Shown here: positions 601 through 36,087 of the stretch, piece by piece
Layout of the letters: each line of letters starts with the position of its first letter
How positions within the stretch are numbered: position 1 is the first letter of the stretch
Source: a virus
Taxonomy: Duplodnaviria > Heunggongvirae > Uroviricota > Caudoviricetes
Virus record (IMG/VR): IMGVR_UViG_2874920711_000009
Span: 1-44,255 of that record
Direction: 5' to 3' (one strand)
Length of the DNA: 44,255 nt
Notes under the pieces: generated by a model
What the model saw: only the letters and a program-made list of their open reading frames with translations
Told to the model about the DNA's origin: nothing
Database searches by the model: none
Program-made: the position numbers and the translations under genes

Positions 601-765
601 TACGTATCCTTATACCTGAAATCTTCGCAAGTATGCCTGGCCGCGAGATTATGGCACACTTGTCCGGTTAACTCTCGTCTCATACAGGTAACACAAACGT
701 GAAAATCCTTGTTGATGAAAAAAATGATGACTTAATTTATTGATGTAAAAGGATTTATGTCAGCG

Positions 766-995: not shown

Positions 996-2148
996 AATAG
1001 CTGCGCTTAATACCGCTACACTTTTGCCAGTCCATGTTTGCCTCCGGGGAATGGGCTGACGGTTTCCATAAAATGGCGAACTTTTTTCAACAGTTGCCAC
1101 ATTGAGCGGCACTGATGATTACGCGTTATTGTGTCGTGAAGTGCCTGCCATAGCCGTTCAACATGATTCACCCATGGCGAGTAAACCGGCTGATAAATGA
1201 CCCTGAACTTCGGGTTCTCCTTCAGCCAGCTCTGTGTTTCCCGGCTTTTGTGGATAATGTAGTTGTCCACGATCAGCGTGATGGTTTTCGCCCGACGGTA
1301 TGTCGCTTTAAGCCGCTTCAGCAGGCTGATGAACAGCGCCGAACTTTTGCTGTTGCCGCCCACATAGCTGACTTTACCTGTCCCGCTGTGCAGCGCTCCG
1401 GCCAGATAATATTTTTCATTCTGTCCCGGCGTGACCACCCGTTTTTGCTGTCCGCGCAGTTGCCAGTCCGCACCGATTTTGGGATGAAGATGGATATCCA
1501 CTTCATCTTCATAAAAGACCGGATGCTCTGCGCTGCATTCGTCCAGTGCTTTATGGATTGCTGCCATCTTTTCATCTTTATGCGGGTCACGGATACGCAG
1601 AGTTGGCGCAGCCCTTCGCCACACAATCCCCGCAGACGGCAACCAGCGGCGAACGGTTCCGGCATTTAACTGGCAACCGGTTATCTCATTGATTTTTATT
1701 GCCAGCAGTTCTGTACTCCAGCGTGAACGCTGGTAGACAAAGTCGCCGGGAGAATGTTTTACCAGCTCACGTAACAGTGTGCAGATATGCTCAAACGGCC
1801 AGCGACGGGCACGCCCGGCAGGTAATGATTTCAGTCCCTCAACACCCGACTGCGTGAACCAGTTAATCCAGCGTCCAACAGAGGAACGGGCGCAGCAGAG
1901 CGTTCTGGCAACGTCGCTGACACGGTCGCCCCGGTGCAGCATCAGCATGGCAGTCAGTCTGCGGGCATAATTTTTATCGTGTGTTTTATGGATGGCTTTC
2001 TGCATCAGGCGTCGTTCGTCACGGGAAATTGGTGCTATGATCGGCATTGCTCAGTCCGGTTGGTGATTTGTTTTGATTTGGCGATTGATCAGATCGCACA
2101 ATCCGGGCTAAGTTCCCTCAAAGTGATCTACTATTCCGCGCAGCTATT
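996..2148 (-). mobile_element. IS630-family insertion sequence, 1153 bp
   Basis: 343-aa IS630-type transposase inside; terminal inverted repeats AATAGCTGCGC; flanked by TA on both sides within a CTAG target (993..995 and 2149..2151). Confidence 0.85.
1016..2047 (-). CDS. IS630-family transposase
   Basis: 343-aa ORF of typical IS630 transposase length and sequence character, bounded by the IS inverted repeats. Confidence 0.9.
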   Translation of the reverse strand: MPIIAPISRDERRLMQKAIHKTHDKNYARRLTAMLMLHRGDRVSDVARTLCCARSSVGRWINWFTQSGVEGLKSLPAGRARRWPFEHICTLLRELVKHSPGDFVYQRSRWSTELLAIKINEITGCQLNAGTVRRWLPSAGIVWRRAAPTLRIRDPHKDEKMAAIHKALDECSAEHPVFYEDEVDIHLHPKIGADWQLRGQQKRVVTPGQNEKYYLAGALHSGTGKVSYVGGNSKSSALFISLLKRLKATYRRAKTITLIVDNYIIHKSRETQSWLKENPKFRVIYQPVYSPWVNHVERLWQALHDTITRNHQCRSMWQLLKKVRHFMETVSPFPGGKHGLAKV

Positions 2149-2916
2149 TAGTTTTCGGATGAAATCAATGTCATTACCTTTATAAAAAACAGCCTTTGTA
2201 TCTGTAGATACTAGCCAGTTTCGCTCAACTGCTTTCTGTTTATCAAGGCGATAAAGCATGCTGGTTTGTTCAAGGCCTAAATATACATCCCAACTAAGAA
2301 ATACTTCGGTTTTCTTTTCTCGGCAAGCTATAAACAGAGTAGGAGTAACCGCTTCTCCAAATGGAGTTCTGATATAATCATCACTTTCTAACGATAAAAT
2401 TACATTTTTCGAATCATCAATTGGCGATGTAGTAATGGATGTGTGCCATTTTCCTACATCTGTGGCTTTCTCTAATTTTGATTCAGCTTGAACGGCTTTA
2501 TCCTGTGGGAATAGTTTATCGTAGCAGTTTAGTCTGGCTTCTTTATCATTTTCTGCACGACATTTAGATATCTCAGAAAAATTTGGTTGCTGAGCCTCTG
2601 TTGTTACTGGCTTTTCCGTTTTAGATTTTGAGTTTACAGATGGAGTAAATGTTGGAGAAAAGAAACGATCATAACAAGATAAACGTCTATCATCATCTTT
2701 CTCATCAGGGCATTGATCTCTGCTTTCGAATTTTTCAGCAACTTTCGTTCGAGTCGGTTGTATTGACTTATCGTAACAAGAAAGTCTGTCTTTATTATTT
2801 TCTATTGCTCGGCACTGGAGTACTGCATTGAAGTTCTTATGTTCAGTTGCTGCGTGAACAGGCAGTACACTAATTGATATAAATGATGCACCTATAGAAA
2901 AAATTATATTTTTCAT
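2131..2916 (-). CDS. secreted protein with three Cys-containing repeats (C-x8-9-RLxCYD[KR]); 3' end replaced by IS630
   Basis: N-terminal signal peptide MKNIIFSIGASFISISVLPVHA; last 6 codons and stop (KLNSCAE*) are encoded by the IS630 terminal repeat; low GC. Confidence 0.6.
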   Translation of the reverse strand: MKNIIFSIGASFISISVLPVHAATEHKNFNAVLQCRAIENNKDRLSCYDKSIQPTRTKVAEKFESRDQCPDEKDDDRRLSCYDRFFSPTFTPSVNSKSKTEKPVTTEAQQPNFSEISKCRAENDKEARLNCYDKLFPQDKAVQAESKLEKATDVGKWHTSITTSPIDDSKNVILSLESDDYIRTPFGEAVTPTLFIACREKKTEVFLSWDVYLGLEQTSMLYRLDKQKAVERNWLVSTDTKAVFYKGNDIDFIRKLNSCAE

Positions 2917-2920
2917 TTTA

Positions 2921-3253
2921 TTATCCCTTTGGTTTAGTAAGAAATACTAAAATTCCGATAATGATATCGCCAATAACCCATAAGCTTCCAATGGTAATTA
3001 AACCTAAGCCTGTACCAATAACTGCACCGGCTTTTTCGGCATCGGATGTGGCATTATTTATTATTTCACTAGTGCCTCCTAGTCCAACTAAAAGCGTATA
3101 GGTCATAAAAATATTAAATAATATAAAAACCCACTTAATGATCCGTCCAAAAAATGAACGCTTAAGTTTTTGTAGTTGTTTACCACAAGCAGGGCAATAC
3201 AATGCTGAATCGCTTACCTCTTTCTGGCATTCAGGACATTTGATTAATGCCAT
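2921..3253 (-). CDS. zinc-ribbon membrane protein
   Basis: CPEC..x13..CPACG ribbon followed by two hydrophobic helices; 4 bp upstream of the secreted-protein gene, same strand; low GC. Confidence 0.6.
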   Translation of the reverse strand: MALIKCPECQKEVSDSALYCPACGKQLQKLKRSFFGRIIKWVFILFNIFMTYTLLVGLGGTSEIINNATSDAEKAGAVIGTGLGLITIGSLWVIGDIIIGILVFLTKPKG

Positions 3254-3513
3254 GTAATCCGCCTCCTTTGGATTAATACGAGTTGATATTTGTTACAAAA
3301 CATTTTGATTTTATCAGATTTTTTTTATTGATAAGTGTCAATTGATTAGCTGGTATAGAGTGAGGCATATAGAAGGGCTGAGCTGCGTCAGTATGTGATG
3401 CAAAAATCCCACAGTTTCATGGAATTTTTGCATTTAGAGCTGTGAGATAGGGTGCCTTATCGACCTTACCCTGGCAACCGATTGACGGGGATTGCTCCCC
3501 CGTCGCGGTTTCC

Positions 3514-3654
3514 TTACTGCTTACACTGTAAGAACGCCGCAAACTCCGCTCCCCAGAAGCTCATCCGTATTTCACACAGCGAACCGTGTAGCATCCAGAT
3601 GATGAGGATTACCGTCACGCAGAACGTGATGGCCGTAAGCGATTTTTGCGACAT
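3514..3654 (-). CDS. Hok/Gef-family type I toxin-like peptide (46 aa)
   Basis: Hand translation MSQKSLTAITFCVTVILIIWMLHGSLCEIRMSFWGAEFAAFLQCKQ: N-terminal TM helix then LCEIR..x6..EFAAF, matching the Hok/Gef motif LCE[IV]R..EVAAF; not in the ORF track (under 60 aa). Confidence 0.5.
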   Translation of the reverse strand: MSQKSLTAITFCVTVILIIWMLHGSLCEIRMSFWGAEFAAFLQCKQ

Positions 3655-3845
3655 AGCGCTTGCTCCTTTGTTGGAGAGGCGCTAACCTATCACTTGCTTA
3701 AGGTAGATATGTTAGGGCCTCGGTTAAACAAAAATGTTTTCCGGGGCCTTTCCACATCTGGCCTTCGGGTATTCCCTCCGACCATCAGCCGAAAGGCACC
3801 CGCGCGTAATCTATCGCTTTTTTGTTACTCCGGCAATTCTGCCTG

Positions 3846-4106
3846 TTAATTCTGAGGTAAAGGCAAACTCATCTGATTGTTTCCCCTGTGTGAAGCTGGC
3901 AGTTCATGCCACGGGATACCTTCTGAAGAGTGAACGCCGGAGGCATGTTTCGATGTGAATTTATGGAAAGCTTCCAGTGTTGAGAAGCATACGCCGCATT
4001 CCAAGTTGTTACACTGGTAATACTTTTGCCGCACGGTGTTTGAATCATTTTCCGGACGACTGGTGCGGATACGGGCAGATGCGCCACAAAGCGGACAACG
4101 GAACAT
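3846..4106 (-). CDS. ogr: Ogr/Delta-family zinc-finger late-gene activator
   Basis: MFRCPLCG...YYQCNNLECG zinc-finger pattern; GGGAGG RBS; adjacent to gpD as in P2. Confidence 0.8.
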   Translation of the reverse strand: MFRCPLCGASARIRTSRPENDSNTVRQKYYQCNNLECGVCFSTLEAFHKFTSKHASGVHSSEGIPWHELPASHRGNNQMSLPLPQN

Positions 4107-4148: not shown

Positions 4149-5258
4149 TCACTCTGTTTCCGCTATCCATTCCGGGATTTTTGCCTCAAGCTCAAGCTGC
4201 GTGGTAAAGCCGCTGTTATCAATGGTGTGCTCGACTTTCGCAATAATCCAGTCCTGATTATCAATCTCGCTTTTAAATCCTGTTACCGTGCCATGCATTT
4301 CGGGGTAGAGTTCTGCGCGTCCACGTGCCAGTGTGATGGAGAACGCTGCGGCTCCGCGTTGTAGCTGCTGCCACTTTGCCGCCGCTGCGCGTCTTGCTGC
4401 CTGCTCGTTCTGATAAGTCTTGCGTAACACAAACACATTGCCTTCCGCGCCTTCCATATAATCACCTTCACGGCTGCTGCTTTTCTCCTTTTTCGGTTTG
4501 GGTGGTTTGCGGCGTTTCACGCTGACTTTTTTCTTTTTCCCATAGTTAAGATCAAGCCAGTAGGCGCGCACCCCCGTATACGCCTCGCGGTCAGCAATGC
4601 GGAACTGATGGCGATCGCCGCTGCTGCGTGTGATGGCGAACGATGGCAACGGCTGGCCCTGTGCGTTCACGCCACCACCTGGCATGATGAATAACAGATT
4701 GCCGCTTTTTACCGTGGTGATTGCGCCCAGCATTTCCGCCATGCGCGTAAGGAAGGACATGTCGCTTTCTTCGGTCTGGTCGGCGTGGTCGATTTCGATC
4801 TCCATCAGCATTTCGCTGATTTGCGGTTTCAGACCGTACCGATGAGCGATGGCAGATACCACGCGCTCAACGGTCACATCATGCCAGGATACTTCATGTT
4901 TAACGTTAAATTCATCCCGAAAATCTGCGCTTCTGGCTGAAACAGTCAGCCTGTCCGGCGGTCATTCGTGAGCGATTTCATCAACAATGTAAGTGCCTTT
5001 TTCTGTCAGCGGTTCTCCTTTCCAGCCAATGAGAACCGTCAGGCGCGCGCCCCGTGGCGGTAGCTGCAACTGACCATCCGCATCATCCAGCGTGATGGTG
5101 AGCTGGTCCGCCTCAAATCCCCGGTTGTCGGTCAGTGACAGGCTCATCAGGCGCTCTGCCACGCCTGACAGCGCTTTACCCTCCGCGAGAATATCAAAAT
5201 CCGGCATTTTCACGGGGTCTGTGCCCTGACTGAGCAATTGCATGGTGGTGTCGGTCAT
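4149..5258 (-). pseudogene. D: tail protein gpD (late control D), frame broken between about 4880 and 4960 as given
   Basis: N-terminal fragment from ATG 5258 (GGGAGG RBS) ends at 4962; C-terminal 242-aa fragment 4149..4877 in another frame. Confidence 0.75.
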
Positions 5259-11769: not shown

Positions 11770-12343
11770 TGTGGGGCGACTGGCCACTCAACATCCGCTG
11801 CTACTGTTGTATCAACACGATTCAACAATACCCGATATGTCTTCCATGCAGCCAGTAACGATGCCTCTTCCTCCGTCGCAATATCCAAATCTACGGCATC
11901 CTGAAGTGGCGCAATATGCTCACTGGCTACCTGCATCAGGCTGTTTTTTGTTTCTTCTGCCTCCCGTACCCGAAACAGTTTTTCTGCTTCTGCATCTTTC
12001 GCCCAGGATGTGCCGTTCCACTTCTGACACTCTCCATCCGGCGACAACTAGGTAACATTTTCCGGTAACGGACCGAGTTCAGAAATAAATAACGCGTCCC
12101 CTGATGCCACGTCATAAACAGTTTTACCCCGATGATCTTCAACGAGATGCCACGATGCCTCATCACTGTTGAAAACAGCCACGAAGCCAGCCGGAATATC
12201 TGGCGGTGCAATATCGGTACTGTTTGCAGGCAGACCTGTATGAGGTGGAATGTATGCATCACCTTCCCCAATAAATTCATTAGTTCCGGCCAGCAGGTTA
12301 TAAATTTTTATGGCCGTGATTGTTCACTCATTCTGAAATCCAT
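11766..12343 (-). pseudogene. tfa: tail fibre assembly chaperone (Tfa family), inactivated
   Basis: Body ...[22 protein letters not shown]...[27 protein letters not shown] is Tfa-like; frame break after codon 11 at a T5/A5 run and an in-frame TAG (ENVT*LSPDG) near 12051. Confidence 0.7.
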
Positions 12344-35765: not shown

Positions 35766-36087
35766 GGTGTGGCCCCTTGTGTAGTAAGTTGTGAAAACTC
35801 ACCATCCAGAGCTGCGAAACTGTGGGTGGCGAGACGTACGAGGTTCGCAGTACCGGCTACACAAGAACCCGGCCCGACCGAAGTCGGCCCCGTACGCCCC
35901 GCCATAATTCTGACGCGAAAAAAACGTAGCAATACAGTACGCACAAAAAAACCGCTGGCGCGGTTGTGCGCTTGTGTAGTCAGCAGGCTGCGAAACCCGG
36001 CACCCGTTTTGTGAGGTGCAGCGGAAATGTAACCTGACTGATTGCGGCATGGCAAGCGGTTTTTTTGTGTGTGCATGTTCTGGTTTC

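Follow-up and report, generated by a model that had tools for sequence, protein, structure and literature searches.

Does the short open reading frame (ORF) that lies beside the ogr gene of a P2-like prophage encode a Hok/Gef toxin, and if so, is the toxin accompanied by the RNA elements of a type I toxin-antitoxin (TA) system of the hok/sok kind? The question arose from a sequence-only reading of IMG/VR virus record IMGVR_UViG_2874920711_000009, a Caudoviricetes sequence of 44,255 nt whose whole length (positions 1 to 44,255) is called the window below. Our analysis makes it highly probable that the locus is a hok/sok-type type I TA module, one that the prophage has at its ogr end as accessory cargo. 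Judged from sequence and its comparison, a complete hok-type mRNA locus occupies the minus strand between 3801 and about 3398 and would yield a highly structured RNA of ~350-400 nt. One part is missing: the locus has no mok frame, and this is a genuine departure from the architecture that defines hok/sok systems.

The toxin ORF, which was absent from the list of predicted ORFs and had been picked out by eye on the minus strand, is present exactly where it was placed, with 46 codons and a stop, and translates as the 46-amino-acid peptide MSQKSLTAITFCVTVILIIWMLHGSLCEIRMSFWGAEFAAFLQCKQ. Its attribution to the Hok/Gef family is borne out by profile searches. The Pfam family HOK_GEF (PF01848) matches the peptide at 30.1 bits (gathering score 22; E 3.7e-7), with residues 7-44 aligned to profile positions 5-42 of 42, and PHROG 251, which is annotated 'MokW-like host killing' and falls into the category 'moron, auxiliary metabolic gene and host takeover', matches at E 2.5e-23. 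The best NCBIfam matches are to HokA and to the Hok family, both far under their curated cut-offs: the peptide reaches 35.8 with the HokA equivalog NF007290 (cut-off 89) and 23.6 with the Hok subfamily model NF007279 (cut-off 73). Because it scores under both cut-offs, the peptide is, by these profile comparisons, not a HokA orthologue but a representative of a divergent 46-amino-acid subfamily. No second hok-like ORF was found within the window.

Homologous loci were collected from RefSeq E. coli and phage records, GTDB genomes, contigs carrying divergent Salmonella and Klebsiella members, and at least 120 IMG/VR contigs. The scan of GTDB genome contigs gave seven loci, with the diversity being supplied by the divergent-member contigs and IMG/VR; 75 unique loci had both mRNA ends and 31, at <97% identity, were aligned. 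The hok ORF is intact in 71 of the 75 (from E. coli, Salmonella, Klebsiella and Citrobacter) and its ratio of nonsynonymous to synonymous substitution rates (dN/dS) is 0.22, so that the Hok peptide is under selection. Shortened variants of 25-29 amino acids are found in some genomes.

The predicted RNA begins with GGGUGCCUU, which can pair without a mismatch with 3450..3458 (9 of 9 positions, 3450-3458 with 3793-3801), and the 362-nt RNA from 3801 to 3440 folds with a minimum free energy of -154.9 kcal/mol (z -7.2) and with both ends paired. The RNAalifold consensus of the 31 sequences comprises 75 pairs, with 97.9% of cells paired against 35-42% when the partners were slid; compensatory changes are seen in 18 of these pairs, and none of 500 shuffles reached the observed pairing or covariation. 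Supported helices include tac/fbi (helices 1-2), in which four of 11 pairs are compensated, 10 of the 31 sequences changing at three of them and seven at the fourth, and a long-range helix (helices 6-7, four covarying pairs) that joins the Sok-target loop region to 3483..3468 in the 3' untranslated region (UTR). The GGCCCCGG/CCGAGGCC hairpin and the hairpin that encloses the hok Shine-Dalgarno (SD) sequence are also among them. In helix 9 the start region AUGUCGCAAA pairs with the EFAAF codons (3543..3534), a pairing that is uninformative for covariation because it is invariant.

When the alignment was folded truncated after the 3' stem-loop, an alternative tac/ucb helix and a GAGGC/GCCUC helix appeared. 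Columns 10-11 of the alignment, which lie in tac, covary with ucb columns 50-51 (UA to CG and CG to GC in eight sequences) and with fbi columns 364-365 as well. Coupled covariation of tac/fbi and tac/ucb is the signature of the hok mRNA switch, and is reportedly what Gultyaev, Franch and Gerdes described for that switch in RNA in 2000 (reference 13 in PMC1635323).

A leader of ~200 nt had been expected within 3655..3845, and a covariance-model search supports this in part. Rfam model RF01794 matches 3644..3801(-) over its full length (model positions 1-157) at 47.6 bits and E 2.2e-9 in an E-value scan of 901 nt, a score that lies below the gathering score of 59; the Stx-phage homologue reaches 42.1 bits, and K-12 hokB and hokC 110-118 bits. 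In K-12 the model falls on the hok mRNA strand and extends from +1 to the hok AUG. RF01794 describes the leader, therefore, and the window leader would start at G3801. The predicted leader does lie within the expected interval but is 147 nt rather than ~200 nt in length, 3802..3845 being taken up by the predicted hok promoter and the end of ogr and not by leader RNA. RF01794 is itself named 'sok antitoxin', yet it matches the hok sense strand (602..754 and 1067..1218 in the K-12 loci; 3644..3801 in the window) and not the strand on which sokB and sokC are annotated. Its gathering score also misses the prophage subfamily, which scores 42-48 bits.

The predicted hok promoter begins 10 nt past the ogr stop codon (3848..3846). 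A TAGA(T/A)T hexamer 6 nt ahead of GGGTGCC is also found in homologues with unrelated upstream DNA, and the spacing between -10 and +1 is equal in K-12 hokC (TATAAT) and hokB (TAGGAT). Both this promoter and that of sok were positioned by homology and not by consensus scan; taking sequence and homology together, the hok promoter (-35 TTGCCG, -10 TAGATT) is weak but plausible.

At the other end of the transcript, the hairpin proposed past the hok stop codon (3484..3504) is real, and was located at 3483..3505 on the plus strand with eight pairs, of which six are G-C. In the alignment, this stem-loop (helix 13) has nine pairs, five of them with compensatory change. It is not a terminator, since no U-tract follows it on the minus strand. 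In plasmid R1, a stem-loop after the stop codon protects the 3' end of the processed mRNA (PMC9841398), and by analogy the window stem-loop would form the protective 3' end of a processed, active hok mRNA. Compared with its closest relative, the window carries two single-base homopolymer deletions, one in a C-run at ~3490 within this stem-loop and one in an A-run at ~3326 ahead of the zinc-ribbon gene described below; both may be sequencing artefacts.

The near-perfect palindrome noticed further downstream also exists: its arms (3398-3411 and 3420-3433) are complementary at 13 of 14 positions with 8 nt between them, and its RNA form has a folding energy of -19.8 kcal/mol (z -5.4). Related loci carry canonical GC-rich terminators (CCCGCAG...CTGCGGGTTTTCTTTTT) in alignment with the palindrome, which is best seen as the positional equivalent of the intrinsic terminator in these homologues. 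Its termination efficiency is uncertain because the U-run sits within the 3' arm, and a terminator function in the window is thus uncertain too.

An antisense Sok RNA could not be made out by eye in the leader region. By positional homology, however, a predicted Sok-like RNA can be placed there, at about 3696..3756(+). The annotated sokB and sokC genes of K-12 have an antisense promoter and a hairpin co-located with the predicted sok of the window; K-12 sokB starts 8 nt past its -10 hexamer TAAGAT, and its -35 hexamer TTGCCG directly adjoins the hok SD of the other strand. Across the 75 loci, the sok -10 hexamer is TAACCT in 72 and TATCCT in the other three, the -35 hexamer is TTGCTC in 57, and the 17-nt spacing is invariant. 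The predicted Sok, ~60 nt in length, would comprise a single-stranded 5' tail of 18-20 nt and the hairpin GGGCCUCGG...CCGGGGCCU (3715..3749), followed by UUCC. Its predicted fold of -21.8 kcal/mol (z -3.1) stands beside -22.2 for SokB and -21.6 for SokC. The tail is complementary to the target loop, which reads UUAAG, CUAGA, UUCGC or similar in the aligned homologues. The target loop of R1 contains a YUNR motif (PMC5668327), and on its sequence the predicted loop here fits that motif. We infer both the placement of the sok gene and its promoter from these comparisons.

The expectation that failed is that of an overlapping mok frame in the leader. Where hokC has AUAUG the window has AUAUC, and stops close each of the three frames ahead of the hok SD; the canonical mok start is missing in 74 of the 75 related loci and present in one. 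In hokB, hokC and the intact hokA of O55:H7, the mok AUG lies 7-8 nt past GAGG, as it does in R1 (PMC9841398). The window leader holds two ORFs, beginning at AUG17 (31 codons) and AUG45 (19 codons) and ending 35 and 43 nt ahead of the hok AUG, neither of which is conserved among the 75 loci: starts and stops vary, and Salmonella-type loci are without either AUG. Three candidates for mok were tried and rejected. The 31-codon ORF (3690..3785(-)) lacks its AUG in Salmonella-type loci and varies in where it stops; 35 nt also separate its end from the hok AUG. A minority of loci, E. albertii among them, have the AUG45 ORF open through to hok, but it is closed in the window and absent from Salmonella-type loci. 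A non-canonical AUA or AUC start past GAGG is not conserved and meets stops.

How, then, might Hok be made? In a mok-less subfamily such as this one, ribosomes must either start on hok directly at its own SD or receive help of another kind. One tentative answer, to which we give appreciable but not majority weight, is that the 46-amino-acid prophage Hok subfamily is a mok-independent hok/sok variant, in which GAGG would not be a ribosome-binding site but only an element of the RNA switch and part of the Sok target, with Hok being translated from its own CUCC-sequestered SD or via read-through from ogr. If true, such a variant would couple Sok to toxin synthesis otherwise than by the textbook mok relay.

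A number of observations weigh against the locus being a hok/sok-type module. One is the absence of mok from this subfamily, given that in R1 translation of mok is needed for Hok synthesis and that loss of the mok start or early stops in mok abolish toxicity (PMC9841398). Another is the state of the hok SD, the accessibility of which was estimated by partition-function folding of the 31 aligned sequences in three states. The SD is paired in all of them, with a mean unpaired probability of 0.02 in the full-length RNA, 0.08 in the truncated RNA and 0.02 in the truncated RNA with the Sok target blocked; for the window's own SD, the value is 0.0 throughout. Hok/sok is also absent from the whole-window Rfam scan at gathering thresholds (47.6 against 59 for the regional match), and a consensus promoter scan of 3250..3950 called neither the hok nor the sok promoter, the sok hexamers matching consensus at six of 12 positions and the -10 TAACCT at three of six. 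At the 3' end, one arm of the window stem-loop is a single nucleotide (one C) shorter than in every relative, and the palindrome hairpin has no trailing U-tract. Release of the hok SD through 3' truncation was considered as a further element of the switch; the trend in these values is weak and is absent in the window, and we make no such claim.

The features of the locus are collected in Table 1.

Table 1. Features of the hok locus in the window, with sites given in the direction in which each element is read where the two differ
Feature	Position	Strand	Details
Predicted hok promoter	3808..3836	-	-35 TTGCCG (3836..3831), 17-nt spacer, -10 TAGATT (3813..3808), 6 nt to +1
hok mRNA 5' leader, 147 nt	3655..3801	-	Rfam RF01794 match and consensus helices
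tac	3801..3787	-	Leader element
ucb	3753..3743	-	Leader element
GGCCCCGG/CCGAGGCC hairpin	3748..3716	-	Contains GAGG at 3721..3718
Sok-target hairpin	3715..3682	-	YUNR-type loop UUAAGCAAGU at 3701..3692
GCCUC (dcb-like) and CUCC anti-SD	3680..3673	-	Leader element
hok SD AAGGAG	3668..3663	-	Leader element
Predicted sok gene	3660..3756	+	-35 TTGCTC (3660..3665), 17-nt spacer, -10 TAACCT (3683..3688), start near G3696
hok toxin gene	3514..3654	-	N-terminal transmembrane segment, then SLCEIR...AEFAAFLQCKQ
Conserved 3' stem-loop	3484..3504	-	Directly past the stop codon; helix 13 of the consensus fold
3' UTR regulatory segment	3450..3483	-	AAUCGGUUGCCAGGGU (3483..3468) pairs with the Sok-target loop region; fbi GGUCGAUAAGGCACCC (3465..3450) pairs with tac
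Palindrome, 15-bp hairpin	3398..3433	-	At the site of the hok mRNA intrinsic terminator in homologues

Set beside known systems, the locus most resembles hok/sok (parB) of plasmid R1, the paradigm of type I systems. The two share a Hok/Gef peptide, a structured mRNA of ~350-400 nt, and tac/fbi pairing with alternative tac/ucb pairing. They also share the GAGG...GCCUC boxes and the order of a stem-loop past the stop, then fbi, then a terminator or, in the window, a terminator-like hairpin at its site (PMC9841398, PMC5668327). In addition, the window is predicted to resemble R1 in having an antisense promoter that overlaps the hok SD and a Sok-like RNA whose single-stranded 5' tail and hairpin are directed against a YUNR-type loop. 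The peptide has 46 amino acids in the window and 52 in R1, and the leader is 147 nt in length, whereas the R1 hok start is at nt 174-176 (PMC9841398). Unlike plasmid-borne R1 hok/sok, the prophage-borne window locus is without a mok frame, and its hok SD is paired with the adjacent CUCC. The closest paralogue is hokA/mokA/sokA of the E. coli chromosome, with 43% identity to the HokA peptide. The genes hokA, hokB and hokC share the 5' GGGUGC start of the window RNA and are alike in their spacing from -10 to +1, and the Sok hairpin GGCCUCGG...CGGGGCC is common to the window, SokB and SokC. Set against this are the low scores of the peptide with the HokA equivalog (35.8, cut-off 89) and of the leader with RF01794 (47.6, against 110-118 for hokB and hokC), and the mok AUG past GAGG that all three chromosomal genes have and the window subfamily has not.

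Prophage carriage is shared with hokW-sokW of the Stx2 prophage Sp5 (O157:H7 Sakai), an experimentally functional type I TA system that depends on RNase III and Hfq and was the sole experimental precedent that we found for a prophage hok/sok. It raises Sp5 release about two-fold, HokW appearing only upon induction and aiding lysis (Takada et al., PMC8621323). Whilst the phage databases label the window gene 'MokW-like host killing', HokW is a 51-amino-acid HokC-like peptide (the primers encode MKQQKAM...), unlike the 46-amino-acid peptide of the window, and Sp5 is lambdoid where the window prophage is P2-like. The copy of the 46-amino-acid locus found in Stx2a phages, which is 83% identical, is separate from the HokW studied there (PMC8621323).

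On these likenesses, a working scheme can be outlined for the module. The sequence comparison shows the full-length mRNA with tac at its 5' end clamped to fbi at its 3' end, with the Sok-recognition loop masked by the 3' UTR segment, and with both the SD and the AUG of hok in paired regions, so that an inert primary transcript is to be expected. The tac bases can pair with ucb instead, both pairings being kept by coupled compensatory changes. The later steps are drawn by analogy with R1. Slow trimming of the 3' end back to the conserved stem-loop would remove fbi, and the leader would then refold (tac/ucb and GAGGC/GCCUC) with the target loop exposed. A short, unstable cis-antisense Sok, made from the promoter that overlaps the hok SD, would bind this loop, and RNase III would cut the duplex. 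Hok would be made, depolarising or killing the cell, only when the supply of Sok fails, as might happen upon loss of the element, transcription shut-off or prophage induction. The role of the module is most likely one already known for the family: it may stabilise the prophage end, help lysis and phage release when the prophage is induced, or exclude other phages.

Three other explanations have to be set against this. The simplest, that the ORF and hairpins are chance features of the spacer between ogr and the cargo genes, has a negligible probability: the ORF is short enough for gene callers to miss, and both the promoter scan and the Rfam gathering scan are silent here, but the Pfam (E 3.7e-7), PHROG (E 2.5e-23) and Rfam (E 2.2e-9) matches speak against it, as do thousands of homologous loci with a covariation-supported structure, and the Pfam and PHROG matches and the covariation already refute it. 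Rather more can be said for an evolutionary remnant, in which hok ceased to be translated after the loss of mok and is now hitch-hiking in P2-like prophages. The 74 of 75 loci without a canonical mok start would fit such decay, as would the abolition of R1 toxicity by loss of the mok start or by premature stops (PMC9841398), the pairing of the hok SD in every modelled state, the truncated variants of 25-29 amino acids and a nonsense codon in gene D of the window prophage. Decay is nonetheless hard to reconcile with a 46-codon ORF that is intact in 71 of 75 loci across several enterobacterial genera at a dN/dS of 0.22, and with RNA switch elements that are all kept through compensatory changes. 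The hexamers of the antisense promoter are conserved as well, and an antitoxin for a dead toxin would not be maintained. We therefore regard a remnant as improbable.

The third alternative concerns the role of the module and not its molecular nature, and is thus compatible with a hok/sok-type system. It holds that the module serves as an accessory to phage lysis or host takeover and is not an addiction module, with Hok being made mainly in lytic growth, through Sok decay or through ogr read-through giving a 5'-extended hok mRNA, so as to speed membrane damage and release. Precedent comes from hokW-sokW, with its two-fold effect on Sp5 release and its expression of HokW only after induction (PMC8621323), and the PHROG 251 class 'moron, auxiliary metabolic gene and host takeover' points the same way. 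So does the setting of the gene: hok shares its strand with ogr and follows it after 45 nt in which no terminator-like site was seen, and ogr is directly upstream of hok on that strand in 86 of the 115 IMG/VR loci. The subfamily is also found away from ogr, however, at lambdoid prophage ends, in tandem copies and beside other TA genes, and with a stop codon in gene D the window prophage may not complete a lytic cycle. A dedicated lysis role is thus possible but on balance unlikely, although it deserves more weight than a remnant does.

In the window, ogr (an Ogr/Delta zinc-finger gene, 3846..4106) is followed upstream by gene D and then by P2-type tail genes, these upstream genes having been identified by Pfam and from what is annotated in E. 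coli C7, which shares 98.8% identity across 3.2 kb. The ogr-hok arrangement recurs in a P2-like prophage of Salmonella that is inserted elsewhere, and the locus is present in the P2-like phages 500465-2, P88, Chuche and P884B11. Of 5426 complete E. coli genomes, 1544 carry the 481-nt locus, in as many as seven copies each, and PGAP annotates it there as a 'Hok/Gef family protein'. Stx2a-converting phages carry the 83% identical copy of the 46-amino-acid hok locus near one genome end (77 'Stx2a-converting' and 12 'Stx2-converting' records; 2021..2375 in Lyz12581Vzw), whilst two Salmonella contigs (2501..3131 and 2501..3135) hold two complete 46-amino-acid hok loci in tandem, ~490 nt apart, beside YafO-toxin or DUF genes. 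One locus type among the divergent homologues has lost the promoter and the tac part of the leader. A few copies bear unlikely organism labels, namely a Planococcaceae metagenome-assembled genome and Vagococcus sp. (peptide 100% identical) and Xanthomonas pisi (74% of residues), and contamination is the likeliest source of these contigs.

Downstream of hok lie genes for a zinc-ribbon membrane protein and a VasI/TagO-like protein, an IS630-family transposase gene and the host gene flk. The product of the first of these, 2921..3253(-), falls into PHROG 6586 and combines a zinc ribbon with membrane segments at the C terminus, and that of the second, 2131..2916(-), is a VasI/TagO-like protein associated with the type VI secretion system (Pfam VasI, E 9e-17); PADLOC gave no match for either. 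The transposase ORF (DDE_3 and helix-turn-helix domains; 1016..2047(-)) lies between flk and the VasI/TagO-like gene, whose product has 261 amino acids here and 297 (894 nt) in relatives without the insertion sequence. The IS630-family insertion therefore appears to have truncated it. Gene D (late control D/baseplate hub, 4149..5258(-)) has an in-frame TGA at codon 99 (4962..4964) where E. coli C7 has Gly, the remainder being nearly identical, and the window prophage is probably tail-defective unless this stop is a sequencing error or is suppressed. Elsewhere in the window, gathering-level Rfam matches were obtained for IS009 (11803..12001(-), 191 bits) and, adjacent to one another, for C4 antisense RNA (35822..35909(-), 83 bits) and the Hfq-binding RNA isrK (35945..36019(-), 64 bits).

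What does the locus add to the picture of hok/sok systems? As a discovery the toxin gene carries little weight, for prophage Hok/Gef genes have long been counted, with 14 Hok/Gef genes listed for E. coli O157 Sakai by Fozo et al. (PMC2887945), and the gene adjoining ogr already bears the PGAP/RefSeq name 'Hok/Gef family protein'. PADLOC gave no match for the locus, and our literature search found no paper on the 46-amino-acid Hok subfamily or on ogr-linked hok. Already catalogued by PGAP and PHROG 251, the hok element is hence ordinary apart from its missing mok. The leader, Sok, fbi and terminator of the subfamily are a different matter, falling below the curated Rfam threshold and being annotated in none of the records examined. 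It is the missing mok that gives this common P2-like phage subfamily its interest, for it provides a naturally occurring case in which to ask whether hok/sok regulation needs the mok relay.

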